Shown here in pieces: positions 664-9,046 of a DNA stretch of 9,046 nt. Location: NCBI GenBank assembly GCA_048939465.1, contig JBHLPL010000080.1:1-9046 (forward strand), read 5' to 3'. Every line of letters begins with the position of its first letter. Within the stretch, counting starts at the first letter, position 1. Made by a program: the position numbers and the translations under genes. The notes beneath the pieces are model-generated. The model saw nothing but the letters and a program-made list of their open reading frames with translations, was not told where the DNA came from and did not search any database. Source of the stretch: Promethearchaeota archaeon. Its GTDB lineage: Archaea; Asgardarchaeota; Odinarchaeia; Odinarchaeales; JBHLKK01.

Positions 664-678
664 CAAAGGCTTTAAATA
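664..678 (+). promoter_or_regulatory. BRE-TATA promoter for the eL33 fusion gene
   Basis: CAAAGGC-TTTAAATA (TATA at 671-678), nearly identical to the promoter at 5081-5093. A second candidate, TTTTAATA, lies at 728-735. Confidence 0.6.
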
Positions 679-784
679 AAACTTGCGTAATAGTTAGGAA
701 ACGAACCCCCTCACGGGAGAAGAAGCATTTTAATAGGTTAATGAGCTAGGCATTTCATGCAAAGCCGAACGGAGGAGAATATCG

Positions 785-1438
785 CTGCCCAAGAAGAAAA
801 AGAAGACTGAGTTGCACGTTCTCAAGGGCGTGGGTCCCAAAATCGCAGAAAAACTGAAGAAAGCTGGCTATGACAGCGTTGAGGCTCTGGCCAAGGTCAA
901 ACCAAGAAAACTTCAAGAGAAAGCAGGTATTGGCGAAAAGACCGCTACATCGTTGGTTTCTGGTGCCAAAGGTTATCTTGAAAAATCCAAAGAGAAAGTA
1001 GCTGAACCGAAAAAGAAGGTTGAGAAGAAGCCCCCGAAGAAAGAAAAAAGAGAGAAGAGGAAAAAACCAGAAAAGGAGAAAGTGAGGGAAAAGGAAAAGA
1101 AGAAAAAGAGAAAGAAAAAGATACCTAGAAAGAAGAAAGAAAAAGTCGAGAAAGAGGAAACTAAGGTAGAGGGAATCGTAGGAGAAGGTGTAATGCTTTC
1201 GTATAGGCGTGGTGGTGGGAGGATAATCTCTAATGTTGGACTGATATGGGTGGACGGGATTAGCACACATCGGAAGGGGGCTCAATTAATAGGTAAGAGA
1301 GTTATGCTGATCTACCCTAGTGGCACCACAATAAGAGGAAAGGTTATCTCCACACATGGGAAAGGAGGCACGCTACGCGTAAGATTCAACAAGGGCCTTG
1401 TTGGAGCAGCGATAGGAAGCAAGGTAAGGATTACCTGA
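785..1438 (+). CDS. rpl35ae: Fusion protein: tandem helix-hairpin-helix domain, Lys/Glu-rich linker and ribosomal protein eL33 (L35Ae), ~217 aa
   Basis: The C-terminal ~88 aa (GVMLSYRRG...QLIGKRV...PSG..IRGKVISTHGKGGTLRVRFNKGLVGAAIG..V.I) follow the archaeal L35Ae pattern. The N-terminus has two HhH motifs (LKGVGPKIAEKL, GIGEKTATSL). The ORF track starts at TTG 812, but the frame is open from 737 and SD GGAGGAG (771-777) sits 7 nt before CTG at 785. Confidence 0.85.
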   Translation: MPKKKKKTELHVLKGVGPKIAEKLKKAGYDSVEALAKVKPRKLQEKAGIGEKTATSLVSGAKGYLEKSKEKVAEPKKKVEKKPPKKEKREKRKKPEKEKVREKEKKKKRKKKIPRKKKEKVEKEETKVEGIVGEGVMLSYRRGGGRIISNVGLIWVDGISTHRKGAQLIGKRVMLIYPSGTTIRGKVISTHGKGGTLRVRFNKGLVGAAIGSKVRIT

Positions 1439-1463
1439 TTTGATGCAAAGCGGGTGGATGTGC

Positions 1464-1931
1464 TTGAGTGAGACTAAACCAAAACCTGAAATAGTAACAG
1501 AAATGAAGAGTATCTCTGATGAAAAATTAGAAGCCAAACCTATACACAGGAAAAGTGAGACTGTTTTGATATCGCTGGGAGGGGGTACAATGCTTGCGTG
1601 CATAGCCTTTGCTAATTACATAGAATGGGTTCCCCTCACTAGTATTCTTATTTATATATTGCCAATACTGGCAGGTCTAGTTCTTGGGATCGTTTCTCGG
1701 ACCTTTGGACAGAGTCTCGCCGTCGCATTACTCTCGATAGTAATTCATGTTCTCATCATAACCCTGATTTTCTTTTTACCTCTGATTCTGGGAACATCGG
1801 CGATTGTTGTCGACCAAGTGGTTCTTACTATATTTACCGATGTAATTGGTTTTGTAAATATGATTCGATTGATAACGTTAACGATGGCGTCGAGCTTACT
1901 TGGGTACTTAATTTTCGGTGAAGAACGCTGA
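1464..1931 (+). CDS. Hypothetical integral membrane protein (about 4 TM helices, hydrophilic N-terminus), ~155 aa
   Basis: Open frame with four long hydrophobic segments. Start placed at TTG 1464 because GGGTGGA (1452-1458) precedes it; the ORF track start is 1440. It lies directly downstream of the eL33 fusion and is probably co-transcribed. Confidence 0.75.
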   Translation: MSETKPKPEIVTEMKSISDEKLEAKPIHRKSETVLISLGGGTMLACIAFANYIEWVPLTSILIYILPILAGLVLGIVSRTFGQSLAVALLSIVIHVLIITLIFFLPLILGTSAIVVDQVVLTIFTDVIGFVNMIRLITLTMASSLLGYLIFGEER

Positions 1932-1935
1932 AGTT

Positions 1936-2418
1936 CTAGGTCACAATCCCTTCATAAACATCGGAATAGAATACGCCAACATCTTCAGCTTCGAAAAACA
2001 GGACAGACAGTCCTGCAAGGGTAATAATATACCAGTTCCATTGATCAGTGGAATTAGCCTCCAAAACAACGTCGTTTCTTTGCCCGGTAATTATGGCGTT
2101 TACCACGGTCGTCCAATTGGAACCAGGTTCGAAGTCTTGAATCGCCTGATACGTACCCACGAATACATTTATGCCATTAAGGTATAGAATAAACTGATAG
2201 AAACTCATATTGATGGGTAACGTGCCTAGATTTCTGAATGTCATAGTCACTCTCATATGCGAATTACTGCCGCTGATGCTTTCTGCGAATACTTCTGTCA
2301 CAGTCAAATCAAAACTACCCAGAGCTGAACTGACTTGCACATATTGATATGCCATGATGCTAGTGAACCCAAAAGATACTAATACTACTGAGATGAAGAA
2401 TATCGCCCGAAATCTCAT
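1936..2418 (-). CDS. Membrane-anchored exported protein, LEA_2/WHy-like beta-sandwich, 160 aa
   Basis: SD GGAGG at 2427-2423; N-terminal hydrophobic anchor; motif VTMTFRNLGTLPINMSFYQFILYLNG resembles the LEA type 2 pattern; three N-glycosylation sequons (NMS, NWT, NST). The CDS is well supported, the fold call is tentative. Confidence 0.7.
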   Translation of the reverse strand: MRFRAIFFISVVLVSFGFTSIMAYQYVQVSSALGSFDLTVTEVFAESISGSNSHMRVTMTFRNLGTLPINMSFYQFILYLNGINVFVGTYQAIQDFEPGSNWTTVVNAIITGQRNDVVLEANSTDQWNWYIITLAGLSVLFFEAEDVGVFYSDVYEGIVT

Positions 2419-3063: not shown

Positions 3064-4965
3064 ATGAATAAAAAAGTAGGCCTCTTCCTCGGAGTATTTC
3101 TAGCGACAGCCATATTCGGTATACTTCTCCCTGCACTTCCAGTACGTGCACAACAAGAAGGTGGAATAGTCACATTCGCATGGCTGGAAGACGTAGACGA
3201 TATGAATCCATGGACAGCTGATTCGGTCTGGGAAGCATACACCCAGGCTGCGATATGGGATGCTCTATGGGACACTAATCCTGACGATATAAGTGTAGAT
3301 CCTTGGTTATGCCACACTTGGGTACAAGTAGATTTAGTGGGTATGGAGTGGGAGTGCTCTATATACGATAACGTGAAGTTCAGTGATGGGACTGATCTGG
3401 ACATAAACGACATAGTTTTTGCCTATTATTTCGCTAAATATGCAGTCACCCGAAACACCGTAATACACAATACATATGTAGACTCCTGCACGAAACTGAA
3501 CGATACTGCATTCAAGTTGGTCCTGACTGAGCCATACGCACCCTTCCCGAGAGGACTGGATCTCTTAGTAGTCAAAGCATCAGACTGGAGTAGCTATGTT
3601 GTTAACTGGGGCGGTTCAGTGGCTTCCACACCAGAACCTTGGATCATCGATAACGCGGCCCTCATCGCTGAGGATCTTCTTGGTGCCGGTGATACACTCA
3701 TTGGGACTGGCGGCTTTGAGTGGATTCAGAGGATTCCTGGGCAATTCATTGAGTTAGACGCAGTTGATGACTACTGGAATCAAGATTTCCAACCACATGT
3801 AGATAAGATAGTACTGAAAATCATCTCGAACCCAGCTGCACAACTGCTGGCTGTAAAGACAGGTGAAGTTGATGCAATGGGCTGGTGGGTGCCACCTGCT
3901 CAGGTAGCAGGTCTTCAAGACCACCCAGTGGTTGGACTTATTCAAACTCCAGACTGCGGCTACTACCACCTCTCATTCAACTTCAGATTCTGGCCAATGA
4001 ATCTGACATCCTTCAGACATGCAGTCCGTGCCATGGTTGATAACCATCAAATCGTCGATGGGTTCATGCTAGGAAATGGTATACCGGGAGGTTCCAATGT
4101 ACCTCCACTCCTGAGCTATTGGTACTACAACTACAGTCTTGACGACTATCCGTTTATGGACTGGGATGAGAACGAGACGGTGGCACGTGCTGAGCTTACA
4201 GCTGGCGGCTGGTATGATACAAACGGGAACGGGAAGTTCGACACATGGTTTAATGGCACGCACGGACCTATTTCATTCGCGACTCTCGGAAACGGAACCG
4301 AATGGCCCAGTGGCATCACGATTCTAGCACCCTCGTACGATCCTGTACGTGTCAGAGCTTGCATGATGATCACTGAAGCTTTAGATAGGCTATTCGATGT
4401 GGATTTCATACCCGAAATCCCAGACTTCAACACCCTGGTCATCAGAGCGTTCTATAGCAACACTTTCGACATGTTCATTCTAGGATACGGTCTAGGATTT
4501 GATCCTGGAACATTCCTAAAGGGTATATTCCACAGTTCGTCCTACGGATTCTTGGGTGCAGATAACTGCTTCCCGATTCTTAATGACACGCTTGACACCG
4601 CTATCGATTACTATATGAATACGACCGGTGATTCCGTGCAGAACGGAAAGACTAGACAACAATGGGGCTGGGAAGTCCAGAAAATCCTGATCGAACAAGG
4701 ACCCCAGTACGTACTGTTCTACAGGGTTAACTACCAAGCTTACAGAAAAGACCTTATAGGCGGTCTTGTTGACATGCCCAGCGGATGGCACAGCACCCAG
4801 CGTTCATTCTACAATGTCTACAGGGTAGCTGCAGTATCTGCCATTCCGACGGGTCCAGCATACACTTGGTATATCGTCGGTGGAGCCGTGGCTGTTGGTG
4901 TAATTGGTATTGCTTTGGTAGCAAGATCCAATGCAGCATTTACAGCAGAAATCAAAGAGAAGTAA
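3064..4965 (+). CDS. oppA: ABC transporter substrate-binding protein, family 5 (OppA/DppA-like), with signal peptide and C-terminal TM anchor, 633 aa
   Basis: Family-5 hallmarks: NPW, 'PWL..W...W.....NVKFSDG..L...DIVF', 'IGTGGF', and 'A.LLAVKTGEVD'. Sec-type leader ending in ...PVRA; hydrophobic tail YIVGGAVAVGVIGIALVA; located upstream of oppBCDF. Substrate is not determinable. Confidence 0.95.
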   Translation: MNKKVGLFLGVFLATAIFGILLPALPVRAQQEGGIVTFAWLEDVDDMNPWTADSVWEAYTQAAIWDALWDTNPDDISVDPWLCHTWVQVDLVGMEWECSIYDNVKFSDGTDLDINDIVFAYYFAKYAVTRNTVIHNTYVDSCTKLNDTAFKLVLTEPYAPFPRGLDLLVVKASDWSSYVVNWGGSVASTPEPWIIDNAALIAEDLLGAGDTLIGTGGFEWIQRIPGQFIELDAVDDYWNQDFQPHVDKIVLKIISNPAAQLLAVKTGEVDAMGWWVPPAQVAGLQDHPVVGLIQTPDCGYYHLSFNFRFWPMNLTSFRHAVRAMVDNHQIVDGFMLGNGIPGGSNVPPLLSYWYYNYSLDDYPFMDWDENETVARAELTAGGWYDTNGNGKFDTWFNGTHGPISFATLGNGTEWPSGITILAPSYDPVRVRACMMITEALDRLFDVDFIPEIPDFNTLVIRAFYSNTFDMFILGYGLGFDPGTFLKGIFHSSSYGFLGADNCFPILNDTLDTAIDYYMNTTGDSVQNGKTRQQWGWEVQKILIEQGPQYVLFYRVNYQAYRKDLIGGLVDMPSGWHSTQRSFYNVYRVAAVSAIPTGPAYTWYIVGGAVAVGVIGIALVARSNAAFTAEIKEK

Positions 4966-4994
4966 GGCAAACAGATAGCAAATACATATATATT

Positions 4995-5009
4995 CCCCCT
5001 TTTTTTCTT
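4995..5009 (+). terminator. Archaeal oligo-T terminator after oppA
   Basis: CCCCCTTTTTTTCTT with a 7-T run at 5000-5006, about 35 nt after the oppA stop. Confidence 0.6.
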
Positions 5010-5076
5010 ATCTTGAGATTCTGAGTCTTCTAACATCAAAAAGAAGACAATATGAACTTAAAATCTAAGTAAGAAC

Positions 5077-5093
5077 CCAAAAAGGTTTAAATA
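5077..5093 (+). promoter_or_regulatory. Internal BRE-TATA promoter for oppBCDF
   Basis: CCAAAAAGG-TTTAAATA (TATA at 5086-5093); SD GGAGGA at 5140-5145 precedes ATG 5154. Confidence 0.7.
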
Positions 5094-5094
5094 T

Positions 5095-5124
5095 TTGGAT
5101 GTATCCAGATACACAGACATCCAA
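5095..5124. promoter_or_regulatory. Candidate operator: nested inverted repeats over the predicted oppB transcription start
   Basis: TTGGATGT-N14-ACATCCAA (5095-5124) containing TGGAT-GT-ATCCA (5096-5107) and TGTATC-CA-GATACA (5100-5113). Confidence 0.55.
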
Positions 5125-5153
5125 GAAGTTAGCTCGAATGGAGGAAGAGCGGA

Positions 5154-6140
5154 ATGAGCCTAGCAAAGTATGTGGCAAAACGAATAGCTACAGGGCTAAT
5201 AACACTATTCTTCGTAGTTGTACTAAACTTCTTTATCTTCTGGGTTATGCCTGGTGATCCTGCAGCGCTGCTGATTTTTGGAAATCCATTTATGACGGAA
5301 GCACAGAGGCAAGCGCTGAGAGCGCAACTAGGACTAGATCGACCGTGGTATATGCTATTCTTCAGCTACATCGTTAATGTATTTACCTTCAATTTTGGGA
5401 ACTCGTACTCTCAATTCAGACCGGTATCAAATATGCTGTTTGAAGCACTTCCCTATACGATACTACTGCTCGTTCCGGCGACCATTGGGTCAGTCTATCT
5501 GGGAATGAAGTTAGGCGTAAGATCAGCCTGGAACTACGGAAAGAAATCAGACCTATCAACACTGATAACGGCTTTGGTGTTCTATTCAATGCCCGTATTC
5601 TGGCTCGGAATGTTCATGATACTTATCTTTGGTTTTTACCTCAGACTGTTCCCGATAGCTGGCGTTATGAGTCCGAGGTGGTTATGGATAAGCCCCCTGG
5701 CGGATCCGCTGGGCTTTGTAGTGGATATAATATGGCACATGTTCCTGCCCTGTTTAACCCTAATACTGTTCTTGTTCGGCGGTTACTACCTCATCATGAG
5801 GAACACGATGCTCGACACCCTGACCCAGGACTATATAGTTACAGCGAAAGCAAAGGGTGCAAGCGACAGAGCGGTAATGTACAAACACGCCCAAAAGAAC
5901 GCTATGCTACCAATGATAACGGTCATTGTTTTGGCTTTCGCCACTATATTTAGTGGTGCTGTCCTTACGGAGACCGTTTTCTCGTGGCCTGGTATGGGTA
6001 AGCTTATGTACAACGCAGCAATCCAGCAGGATTACCCTGTCCTGTGGGGTACGTTTAGCCTCTTGGCTATGATGGTGGTATTCGCGAATATCGTAGCAGA
6101 CGTACTCTATGGATACCTCGATCCGAGAATAAAGTATTAG
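5154..6140 (+). CDS. oppB: Peptide/oligopeptide ABC transporter permease, OppB/DppB type, 328 aa
   Basis: MPGDPA, LGLDRP, FNFGNSY, SMPVFWLG, EAA-region TAKAKGASDRAVMYKHAQKNA, and ETVFSWPGMG motifs; multiple TM segments. Confidence 0.96.
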   Translation: MSLAKYVAKRIATGLITLFFVVVLNFFIFWVMPGDPAALLIFGNPFMTEAQRQALRAQLGLDRPWYMLFFSYIVNVFTFNFGNSYSQFRPVSNMLFEALPYTILLLVPATIGSVYLGMKLGVRSAWNYGKKSDLSTLITALVFYSMPVFWLGMFMILIFGFYLRLFPIAGVMSPRWLWISPLADPLGFVVDIIWHMFLPCLTLILFLFGGYYLIMRNTMLDTLTQDYIVTAKAKGASDRAVMYKHAQKNAMLPMITVIVLAFATIFSGAVLTETVFSWPGMGKLMYNAAIQQDYPVLWGTFSLLAMMVVFANIVADVLYGYLDPRIKY

Positions 6141-6161
6141 GAATAAGAGGAGAGAGATATA

Positions 6162-7082
6162 ATGAGTGGACCTGAGGTTATTGAAATCACAGAAGGCGAA
6201 GAGGTGAGAGCAGGATGGCGAGGCCTGCTCAGAAAGTATAGACGCCGTTTTGGTGGGTTCTGGAAACTCTACAAGCAAAGCAAAATGGGATTGATCGGAC
6301 TATCATTGCTCATCGTATTCTTGGTCATAGGTGTCTTTGCGCCTCTTATAGCACCATGGACTCCTAATGACTTCTTCGTTGGAGGGTCCTTAGAGCCGCC
6401 AAGCTTTCAACACCTTCTCGGATGCGATGAAATAGGCAGAGACCTGTTTTCCATGCTGATTTACGGTACGAGAATATCTTTACTCGTCGGTGTTCTATCA
6501 TCGCTTGGCATAGTCGGGATAGGAACAGTGGTCGGCTTGGTATCAGGCTATCTTGGAGGCAAGGTAGACGAAGTTCTCATGAGGATAGCAGATGTGATCC
6601 TGATGCTTCCAGGAATTCCGCTGCTAATAGTCTTTGCTGCGATACTGGGAGCAAGTCTCACGAACATAATATTTATCATTGTGATTCTATCGTGGGCATC
6701 GACTGCAAGGGTGATTCGGGCACAAGTTCTGTCACTCAAAGAGCGTCCGTTTGTGGAAGCAGCAAGAGCCATCGGAGGAAGCGACCGTTATGTGATATTC
6801 CATCACATACTACCCAATGTTACGCCGCTAGTGTTCACCTATATGATTCTGAATATCCCCATAGCGATTGTTACTGAGGCATCCCTGAGTTTCTTGGGTC
6901 TAGGTGACATCAACGCCTCAAGCTGGGGAATGATGCTGCATTTCGCTTTCGACGCGGGAGCAATAGACACGTGGTATTACATACTCCCACCTGGGATTAT
7001 GATAACAATACTAGCATTCGTCTTTGCGCTGATAGGGCATGCATTGGACGAAATAATAAATCCAAGACTTAGACAAAGATAG
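6162..7082 (+). CDS. oppC: Peptide/oligopeptide ABC transporter permease, OppC/DppC type, 306 aa
   Basis: HLLGCDEIGRD, YGTRISLLVG, EAARAIGGS...IFHHILPNV, EASLSFLGLG, SWGMML, and NPRLR motifs; SD-like GAGGAG at 6147-6152. Confidence 0.96.
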   Translation: MSGPEVIEITEGEEVRAGWRGLLRKYRRRFGGFWKLYKQSKMGLIGLSLLIVFLVIGVFAPLIAPWTPNDFFVGGSLEPPSFQHLLGCDEIGRDLFSMLIYGTRISLLVGVLSSLGIVGIGTVVGLVSGYLGGKVDEVLMRIADVILMLPGIPLLIVFAAILGASLTNIIFIIVILSWASTARVIRAQVLSLKERPFVEAARAIGGSDRYVIFHHILPNVTPLVFTYMILNIPIAIVTEASLSFLGLGDINASSWGMMLHFAFDAGAIDTWYYILPPGIMITILAFVFALIGHALDEIINPRLRQR

Positions 7083-7096
7083 AGGGAGAGTACTCA

Positions 7097-8089
7097 ATGG
7101 CACTGCTAGAAGTGAATAATCTAAAGACATACTACTATCTAAAAGCAGGCGCAGTCAAAGCTGCCGACGATGTAACGTTCAGCGTTGAAAAGGGCGAGAG
7201 CTTCGGTCTGGCTGGAGAATCTGGCTGCGGGAAGTCTACTGCTGCGTATTCTATTCTGAGAATGCCACCTTATCCCGGTAGGATTGTTGGTGGAGAGATT
7301 CTTTATGATGGAAAGGATCTGGTGAAGGTCAGCGATGGTTACATGAGGAAACAGGTACGATGGAAGAAGATCTCTATGATCTTTCAAGGGGCTATGAATG
7401 CCTTAAACCCGGTATTTAAGGTAGGAGACCAAATAGCAGAAGCCATAACCCTACATGAACGTCGTGTGAAAAAGGAAGAGTTAAACGACCGCGTGGCGAA
7501 GCTGCTTGAAATGGTAGGCATAGATTCTAAGCGGATCGAAGACTATCCCCATGAATTTAGTGGTGGCATGAAACAACGAGCAATGATAGCCATGTCTCTT
7601 GCCAACGATCCCGAACTGGTCATAGCTGATGAACCAATAACCGCGCTGGACGTGGTTGTTCAGGGACACATAATGGAACTTCTAAACAGCCTGAAGAAGA
7701 AACTCAATCTATCTTACATTCTGATTACACATGATCTATCGGTAGTGGCAGAGACTTGCGACAGAGTCGCCATCATGTACGCCGGTAAGATTGCTGAGAT
7801 CGCTGATGTTACTACGATATTTAAGAACCCTGCTCATCCCTACACTCAGGGACTCATTGGGGCATTCCCGAGTCTCATAGGAGAGAAGAAACGACTAGCA
7901 GGTATTCCTGGAGCTCCACCAGACTTGATAAATCCGCCCGCCGGATGTCTATTTAATCCACGCTGTCCGTTTGTTATGGACATCTGTAGGAAAGAAGAAC
8001 CGCCCGAAATCGAGATAAAGCCGGGACATACTGCTGCCTGTTGGCTGCATTCTGACAGGGTCAAGAAGGCCAAGAAGACCAAGAAATAG
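7097..8089 (+). CDS. oppD: Peptide ABC transporter ATP-binding subunit, OppD/DppD type, with C-terminal oligo_HPY Cys-rich domain, 330 aa
   Basis: Walker A GESGCGKS, Q-loop IFQ, signature FSGGMKQR, Walker B VIADEP, H-loop ITHD, HPYTQGL, and Cx5Cx6Cx17C. Confidence 0.97.
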   Translation: MALLEVNNLKTYYYLKAGAVKAADDVTFSVEKGESFGLAGESGCGKSTAAYSILRMPPYPGRIVGGEILYDGKDLVKVSDGYMRKQVRWKKISMIFQGAMNALNPVFKVGDQIAEAITLHERRVKKEELNDRVAKLLEMVGIDSKRIEDYPHEFSGGMKQRAMIAMSLANDPELVIADEPITALDVVVQGHIMELLNSLKKKLNLSYILITHDLSVVAETCDRVAIMYAGKIAEIADVTTIFKNPAHPYTQGLIGAFPSLIGEKKRLAGIPGAPPDLINPPAGCLFNPRCPFVMDICRKEEPPEIEIKPGHTAACWLHSDRVKKAKKTKK

Positions 8090-8113
8090 AAACGGAATAT
8101 GGAGAGAGCCTAG

Positions 8114-9046
8114 ATGAGCACAGACAAGGATGGTTTGCTGAGAGTCGAAAATCTCAAGAAATGGTTCCCTGTAAGGACTGGATTCTTCGCTGGCTTGTTT
8201 TCCAAGGGGCAAATCTATGCTTATGCGGTTGACGGAGTAAATTTCAACATAAAAAAGGGAGAAATCCTGTGCTTGGCCGGAGAATCTGGATGTGGCAAGA
8301 CTACAGTTGGGAGGACTATTCTCAGACTAACGGAGCCGACTGATGGAAAGGTGTATTTTAACGGAGAAGATGTATTCTCAGCGGATAAAGAGCGGATGAG
8401 AAAGCTCCGTCAAAAAATGCAGATGATATTTCAAGACCCTTACGAATCCTTGAACCAACGTATGACCGTATTTGACATAGTCGCCGAACCAATAAGAATT
8501 CACAAACTGGCTGAATCCTCAGATGAACTCCAAGATAAGGTAACAAAAGCTCTGGAGGCTGCAGAACTCAGGCCCCCAAGTTTGTTCTTCGATCGATTTC
8601 CGCATGAACTCAGCGGTGGACAGAGACAAAGAGTTAATATTGCCAGAGCAATGATACTCGACCCTGAATTCATTGTAGCTGATGAGCCTGTATCCATGAT
8701 TGATGTGTCAGTAAGAACAGGGATTCTGAATCTAATGATGGACCTAAAAGATGAATTTGGCCTGTGCTATCTGTTTATTACACATGACTTGGCTCAAGCT
8801 CGATATATAGCAGACAACATAGCAATAATGTACCTTGGCAAGATCGTTGGCTATGCATCCATAGAGAAAATGGTTAAATCTCCACTTCATCCTTACAGCC
8901 AAGCTCTAATATCAAACATTCCGATTCCGGAGCCGGAATTGAAGCGTGATAGGATACTGATAACTGGTGAACCTCCGACGCCTATCAATCCCCCCTCAGG
9001 TTGCAGGTTTCATCCGCGTTGTCCTCAGTTTATAGGTGACATCTGC
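8114..9046 (+). CDS. oppF: Peptide ABC transporter ATP-binding subunit, OppF/DppF type (3'-truncated by the window edge)
   Basis: Hand translation from ATG 8114: MSTDKDGLLRVENLKKWFPV...GESGCGKTT...IFQDPYESLN...LSGGQRQR...IVADEPVSMID...ITHDL...HPYSQAL...GCRFHPRCPQFIGDIC, 311 codons with no stop seen. Confidence 0.96.
   Translation, partial: MSTDKDGLLRVENLKKWFPVRTGFFAGLFSKGQIYAYAVDGVNFNIKKGEILCLAGESGCGKTTVGRTILRLTEPTDGKVYFNGEDVFSADKERMRKLRQKMQMIFQDPYESLNQRMTVFDIVAEPIRIHKLAESSDELQDKVTKALEAAELRPPSLFFDRFPHELSGGQRQRVNIARAMILDPEFIVADEPVSMIDVSVRTGILNLMMDLKDEFGLCYLFITHDLAQARYIADNIAIMYLGKIVGYASIEKMVKSPLHPYSQALISNIPIPEPELKRDRILITGEPPTPINPPSGCRFHPRCPQFIGDIC

Follow-up and report, generated by a model that had tools for sequence, protein, structure and literature searches.

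Ribosomal protein eL33 with a predicted leashed helix-hairpin-helix arm in Asgard archaea

Results

The eL33 gene and its surroundings

In the stretch of 9,046 nucleotides analysed here (the window), positions 785-1438 of the plus strand hold the coding sequence of an HhH-linker-eL33 protein of 217 amino acids plus the stop codon, with a probable CTG start; its extent was derived from the reading frame, Pfam matches, a sister genome and related contigs. The gene lies in frame 2 of the plus strand, in which an in-frame TAG at 734-736 is followed by an open frame from 737 to the TGA stop codon at 1436-1438. Upstream of the TTG at 812 this frame contains no ATG, GTG or TTG. The default ORF call starts the gene at that TTG, a start that was rejected since position 812 is a C, giving CTG instead of TTG, in related contigs from two independent metagenome studies. 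In the sister genome G053 a TTG is aligned to the CTG at 785 of the window, and it is the start annotated by NCBI for the 213 amino acid protein encoded there (P0003); the differences between the window and G053 in the nine codons from 785 to 812 are partly synonymous. A Shine-Dalgarno-like GGAGG, read directly from the sequence, is located at 771-775 (+), 9 nt before the CTG, the annotated TTG start of G053 is preceded by GGAGGAG, and the spacing is 8-9 nt in both genomes. Because TTG 812 is not conserved, G053 has a TTG at the position of 785 and a GGAGG is located upstream, CTG 785 is favoured and is probably the start codon rather than TTG 812. A CTG start is unusual for an archaeon.

An ATG at 757 was rejected as start codon since it is in a different frame, which ends at 808, and is missing from the sister genome. 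Antisense ORFs on the minus strand at 755-1285 and 973-1266 were likewise rejected as Phe/Leu-rich shadows of the A-rich linker. Upstream of the gene, a distal TATA-like box, TTTAAATA, can be read directly at 671-678 (+), with an identical 'CTTTAAATAA' upstream of the G053 gene. A proximal one, ATTTTAATA, is located at 727-735 (+), about 50 nt before the start; its counterpart in G053 is TATTTATAATATA, and it represents a putative promoter. Rfam and tRNA scans across the window returned no match.

Downstream, a predicted membrane protein of 163 amino acids without a Pfam family is encoded at 1440-1931 (+) and an ORF of 160 amino acids with a weak CARDB match (E 0.007) at 1936-2418 (-); both are conserved beside the eL33 gene in G053. 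Only two downstream genes are common to the window and G053, and none is shared with Odinarchaeum, so that comparison of the neighbourhood with these two gave no operon clue and no conserved partner candidate. The HhH-eL33 gene looks monocistronic. The region 3064-9046 (+) contains an apparent Opp/Dpp-type ABC peptide transporter operon, recognised from the translations only, with a 633 amino acid substrate-binding protein carrying a C-terminal membrane anchor, two permeases and two ATPases.

The host genome comprises 1.96 Mb in 152 contigs and is 91% complete; a 23S rRNA was not found in this MAG. HhH-eL33 is its sole eL33 homolog (one match). According to GTDB the genome belongs to the same order as Candidatus Odinarchaeum yellowstonii LCB_4 (G001; WEU40413.1), and its class contains only seven genomes. 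Proteins of the sister genome bear the NCBI labels 'Hodarchaeota' or 'Promethearchaeota', thus the names are in conflict.

Integrity of the linker region

The linker DNA is 58% A, the error-prone kind of low-complexity stretch in which a misassembly or an indel might have joined two genes artificially. Such an artefact would also agree with the contigs of run X3, which break within the linker and leave 1020-1170 uncovered. The original prediction had called for a check of the A-rich linker for misassembly or frameshift. Neither was found in independent related metagenome contigs, the evidence being Logan assembled contigs and not raw reads. In an independent metagenome from mangrove, a contig (X5, record 14) spans 813-1168 in frame with 11 substitutions over 356 nt; this relative from mangrove sediment has a single in-frame deletion of 3 nt at 1023, inside the linker. 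Contigs from another study (X7) cover 600-1081 and 1130-1600. Furthermore, the sister genome and the closed Odinarchaeum chromosome encode the fusion as well, as do dozens of other assemblies. Since independent contigs bridge the linker and the fusion recurs in many other assemblies, a local misjoin at the linker is excluded, and we regard an artefactual fusion of two genes as exceedingly improbable.

Near-identical DNA is present in mangrove and sediment metagenomes. The genus is therefore probably not a hot-spring organism, unlike Odinarchaeum.

Domains and predicted structure

An HhH pair, a basic linker and eL33 had been predicted to lie in one frame, and Pfam, translation and AlphaFold2 confirmed this arrangement to the residue. 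The (HhH)2 domain is encoded at 812-1003 (+; residues 10-73) and the eL33/L35Ae beta-barrel, delimited by Pfam, profile and structure matches, at 1181-1435 (+; residues 133-217). The region between them, 1004-1180 (+; residues 74-132), encodes a disordered Lys/Glu/Arg/Pro linker according to its composition, the AlphaFold2 model and a related contig. In a Pfam search with the translation of 785-1435, both families that were to be looked for scored above their curated cut-offs: HHH_5 (PF14520) with 48 bits against a cut-off of 27 (E 1.7e-12, residues 13-62) and Ribosomal_L35Ae (PF01247) with 50.6 bits against a cut-off of 27 (E 2.2e-13, residues 134-216, positions 4-94 of the 95 in the model). 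Both HhH hairpins contain the G-hydrophobic-G motif, as GVG at residues 15-17 and GIG at residues 48-50. The translation of 980-1171 has 64 residues with 30 K, 5 R and 15 E and a net charge of +20, exactly the counts given originally. The whole protein has a net charge of +44 and a pI of 10.5.

An AlphaFold2 model, which had likewise been proposed as a check, was built from a 42-row alignment and predicts a folded HhH domain, a disordered linker and an eL33 barrel. The HhH domain (residues 10-73) has pLDDT values of 94-97 with helices at 18-26, 32-37, 40-47 and 51-73, residues 74-132 are without secondary structure at a pLDDT of about 48-71, and the barrel (residues 133-216) reaches 91-98. When the predicted barrel was used for a Foldseek search, all of the best 50 matches listed were eL33 chains. 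The top match was P. furiosus eL33 from the 70S ribosome (9qf4_Bc; TM 0.91, rmsd 1.4 Å, 85 columns, 39% identity). In the comparison by sequence with solved structures, 4v6u_Bc was matched with an E-value of 3.4e-13. Judged from sequence and predicted structure, the C-terminal part is a real eL33, fused via a polycationic leash to what is predicted to be an (HhH)2 domain.

Relatives of the barrel and the arm

The C-terminal 85 residues share family and fold with archaeal eL33 from P. furiosus (1SQR, 4V6U Bc, 9QF4 Bc) and T. kodakarensis (6SKG Bf). The solved archaeal eL33 proteins are stand-alone and 87-101 amino acids long, whereas the protein encoded in the window has 132 more N-terminal residues, which form the folded (HhH)2 domain and the +20 leash.

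For the arm, the best match among solved structures is the N-terminal domain (NTD) of P. furiosus Rad51 (1pzn_A, E 1.7e-10), including the PKKKKK that precedes it, in agreement with the proposed RadA/Rad51 N-terminal type of HhH. The HhH repeats of Topoisomerase V (4gfj_A) follow with an E-value of 4.7e-7. The RadA/Rad51 NTD and the (HhH)2 modules of Topoisomerase V have canonical hairpins as does the arm described here, but these modules sit on DNA enzymes and the one in the window on a ribosomal protein.

An HhH extension on haloarchaeal eL32 had been mentioned in the original prediction, and a homologous N-terminal module was indeed found: residues 5-87 of the arm match residues 11-92 of H. 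marismortui L32e (1jj2_X) with an E-value of 6.7e-6, and a second eL32 (9l94_Q) matches as well. In haloarchaeal eL32 (L32e with 240 amino acids, 1JJ2 X/1S72 Y; 9L94 Q with 234 amino acids) the homologous HhH module is followed by a low-complexity linker, and eL32 is, like eL33, a solvent-side protein of the large subunit that binds domain II. The location of eL32 is near H25 (PMC10516650). The two arms differ in the carrier and in the linker, which is acidic in haloarchaeal eL32 and strongly basic in the window. By sequence comparison, the HhH arm of haloarchaeal eL32 is the nearest precedent for the arm on eL33; a functional description of it was not found in the literature.

Distribution in Asgard archaea

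A Pfam scan of 201 Asgard genomes detected eL33 in 134 of them, mostly in open frames of about 90-130 amino acids with several long exceptions, which is in line with the expectation that archaeal eL33 is normally stand-alone. For the survey of the fusion, the long frames were read and 400 genomes were then searched with a profile of the fused protein; the counts are lower bounds, with 1,475 further matches. Among the matches listed, full-length matches to HhH-linker-eL33 were obtained in families f1, f2, f14, f4 and f25. In the genus of the window the fusion is present in at least two of the three genomes (the third is 82% complete), with 73% identity in the case of the sister genome G053. All four Odinarchaeum genomes encode it, including the closed one, in which the fused gene is the only eL33. 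The HhH-eL33 proteins of family f14 have 360-450 amino acids and in some cases two HhH modules. In family f4, the cluster representative of which is labelled Heimdallarchaeaceae, the fusion occurs in two single-contig genomes of g23 and at least eight genomes of g28, and it is also present in family f25. Families f12 and f27 encode eL33 behind a basic tail rich in K, T, A, P and S, without an HhH.

An exhaustive HMMER search for both domains over 1.84 billion representative sequences resulted in about 30 clusters at 50% identity that carry HhH as well as eL33. The number of HhH modules in these proteins is one, two or four, and the linkers range from about 22 to 240 amino acids; the leash of P0032 has only about 22 residues. 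Other arrangements were seen in metagenomic proteins: P0018 (605 amino acids) has four HhH modules ahead of eL33, P0084 (173 amino acids) has the two domains the other way round, eL33 first and HhH after it, and P0154 (218 amino acids) is a tandem double eL33.

The barrels of several of these proteins are divergent and score below the Pfam cut-off (19.8 bits in Odinarchaeum, 14.7 in f4, 24.0 in f14 and 15.8 in f25), and NCBI names these fusions 'helix-hairpin-helix domain-containing protein' or 'hypothetical'. In a profile-profile comparison with hhalign, the Heimdallarchaeaceae-type barrels were nevertheless matched to canonical eL33 with 98.4% probability and an E-value of 7e-15. In a published table (Table 1, PMC9932298), Odinarchaeota and Heimdallarchaeota both have the entry 'un' for eL33, an entry that fits fused barrels below the cut-off.

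A maximum-likelihood tree of 56 barrels and 98 columns was weakly resolved and contained long branches. It separated every extended eL33, with HhH or with basic tail, from the 29 plain barrels with a support of 96/87. This split is compatible with a single old origin of the eL33 extension.

Basic extensions are also known from eukaryotes, where a solvent-side ribosomal protein can carry a lysine-rich, disordered extension, and the eL33 tails in families f12 and f27 are of a like kind. The extension of eukaryotic eL33 is short and has no HhH, and homology between the eukaryotic and the Asgard extensions is not implied. Histone-like tails are described for insect uL23 and eL22 in PMC1934995.

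A second arm on eL13 and other HhH proteins of the host

A scan of all open frames of the host genome with HhH profiles returned, besides RadA, UvrC, Hel308, Hef/XPF and a Y-family polymerase (names read from the sequences, not from Pfam), a second ribosomal fusion. On contig C53 (13983-14627, minus strand; L081:1984-2628) an eL13 (Ribosomal_L13e, 51.8 bits, residues 3-116) is joined by a K/E/R-rich linker to an HHH_5 domain at the C-terminus (40.6 bits). This eL13-HhH fusion is found in all three genomes of the genus and in another lineage labelled Odinarchaeia (P0171), and it is absent from Odinarchaeum. The scan also identified a protein of 257 amino acids on contig C16 (L082:1419-2189, minus strand) with an N-terminal HHH_5 domain (51.9 bits) and no other Pfam family. 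It has seven tandem copies of VVEPIKEER, its C-terminal stretch reads like a putative coiled coil, and a counterpart is encoded in G053 (C3:56456-56797).

The eL32 of the host (contig C69:47532-48158, minus strand; L083) scores 139 bits and is without an HhH. Its acidic C-terminal tail, about 45 residues long and rich in E, L and A, has a charge opposite to that of the arms on eL33 and eL13. In the host proteome, basic tails seem to be common: by eye, an N-terminal extension of about 60 residues, rich in lysine, was identified on an Rpo6/RpoK-like ORF (C137:11930-12364, minus strand) and the usual K-rich C-terminal tail on a Nop5-like ORF (C116:4850-6076).

Discussion

The Asgard architecture of HhH, low-complexity linker and eL33 barrel is real, conserved in relatives and undescribed in the literature we found. 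Our search of the literature on eL33/L35Ae, on eL32 with HhH and on Asgard ribosomes revealed no publication that describes a fusion of HhH with eL33 or eL13, and term searches within PMC9932298, PMC10833476 (on Asgard ribosomal-protein clusters) and PMC13728122 found no mention of it. The original prediction had considered the fusion as the best candidate for undescribed biology in the window. This part stands, as no publication describing it was found, but the fusion is not rare since it is widespread in Asgard archaea.

We consider it likely that HhH-eL33 is the genuine eL33 of its host, a ribosomal protein whose tethered arm acts as a clamp on duplex nucleic acid; residence in the ribosome, binding of nucleic acid and the target of the arm are all putative. 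In yeast, eL33 binds domain II of the rRNA and bridges to domain VI beside ES7 and ES39 on the solvent side (PMC4671574). Yeast eL32 is located in the same general area of domain II and ES7, and eL13 in a neighbouring solvent-side cluster (PMC4671574, PMC10516650). The barrel encoded in the window would accordingly sit at the canonical position of eL33, on the solvent face of the subunit, and the disordered leash of about 60 residues with a net charge of about +20 would ride on nearby RNA. The (HhH)2 domain, which is of the RadA-NTD type, might then clamp the phosphate backbone of a duplex with its two G-hydrophobic-G hairpins, without sequence specificity. Together, leash and (HhH)2 domain would constitute a protein 'expansion' of the subunit surface. 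This reading agrees with the intact hairpins, with the DNA-binding HhH modules that are closest to the arm in sequence and with the arm of a like kind on eL13.

As target of the arm, helices of the rRNA or pre-rRNA of the same subunit, bound for stabilisation or assembly, are quite possible, at somewhat less than an even chance. DNA as target is rather unlikely, and mRNA or another RNA on the one hand and a protein partner on the other are each quite unlikely. The presence of basic tails in place of the HhH in families f12 and f27 suggests a general function of the extension in binding polyanions. Furthermore, the ten-fold range in linker length and the arrays of several modules argue for non-specific duplex binding of an avidity type and against a single fixed docking site. 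Where the leash has only about 22 residues, the target should, at least in the lineages concerned, lie close to the surface of the ribosome.

It might also be possible that the arm binds chromosomal duplex DNA and holds large subunits at the nucleoid or at transcribed genes. We judge this to be unlikely, as we do its suggested purpose, an aid to the coupling of transcription and translation or to the storage of ribosomes on DNA. The closest sequence relatives of the arm, the P. furiosus Rad51 NTD and the Topoisomerase V repeats, do bind DNA, the arrays of two to four HhH modules in related proteins resemble the avidity arrays of Topoisomerase V, and a long leash on a solvent-side anchor would permit reach off the ribosome; moreover, arms are present on two large-subunit proteins. 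But a protein with a net charge of +44 that is anchored in an rRNA particle would meet rRNA first, short leashes such as that of P0032 would not reach far from the surface, and the lineages in which eL33 has a plain basic tail instead of an HhH speak for a role of lower specificity. An unlikely wider possibility is that Asgard large subunits carry a set of flexible solvent-side HhH arms, on eL33 and eL13 in the host described here and with up to four modules per protein in relatives, which bind duplex DNA or RNA off the ribosome and thereby anchor ribosomes on the chromosome or on transcripts, or link them to one another.

HHH_5-type domains also include protein-binding members. Like the NusA acidic repeats or the alpha-CTD of the RNA polymerase, the HhH could thus serve as a docking platform by which a protein is brought to the back of this subunit. 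The Odinarchaeum ortholog (P0005/L033) would fit such a function: both of its hairpins are without G-x-G (GIS and DLS) and its HhH domain also reaches 24.3 bits with the RNA_pol_A_CTD model (cut-off 23.8), which looks more like a protein-binding HhH and counts against the clamping of nucleic acid. In contrast, the canonical G-hydrophobic-G is retained in both hairpins of the protein from the window and of the f14 and f4 proteins, and in the second hairpin of the f25 protein. In addition, no conserved neighbour gene offers itself as partner, given that the two downstream genes shared with G053 have no equivalent beside the Odinarchaeum gene. We regard protein docking as very unlikely, and the same applies to the candidates for recruitment, namely an assembly factor, a chaperone, RNA polymerase or a hibernation factor.

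That the fused barrel is the only eL33 copy is not proof of ribosomal residence, because eL33 is lost or dispensable in several archaeal lineages according to Table 1 of PMC9932298. This loss, the fast-evolving barrels with long branches in Odinarchaeum and Heimdallarchaeaceae and a composition like that of basic chromatin proteins would be consistent with an extraribosomal protein, in which an eL33-like barrel, an HhH and a histone-tail-like linker act together in chromatin or as RNA chaperone. We consider such a role highly improbable. The barrel in the window is well conserved, both in its identity to P. furiosus eL33 and in its Pfam score, and the host genome has no second eL33; furthermore, all relatives that bear the fusion would have to lack eL33 while other Asgard families keep it.

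For the families concerned, the 'un' entry for eL33 in PMC9932298 is resolved by these data: Odinarchaeota and Heimdallarchaeota have an eL33, which is fused, divergent and annotated as 'HhH domain-containing protein'. With a leashed domain of a nucleic-acid-binding type on eL33 in the Odin and Heimdall groups and on eL13 in the genus described here, a different route to a larger subunit surface emerges, in contrast to the rRNA expansion segments and simple basic tails of eukaryotes.

No known organisms are more closely related to the eukaryotic host than Asgard archaea, whose ribosomes serve for tracing the growth of the eukaryotic ribosome. Contact of the arm with DNA or mRNA would, if it occurs, matter for the positioning of translation in cells without a nucleus. 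Should HhH arms indeed act off the ribosome, they would represent an archaeal device for localising or coupling ribosomes without a described counterpart, in the lineage closest to eukaryotes.
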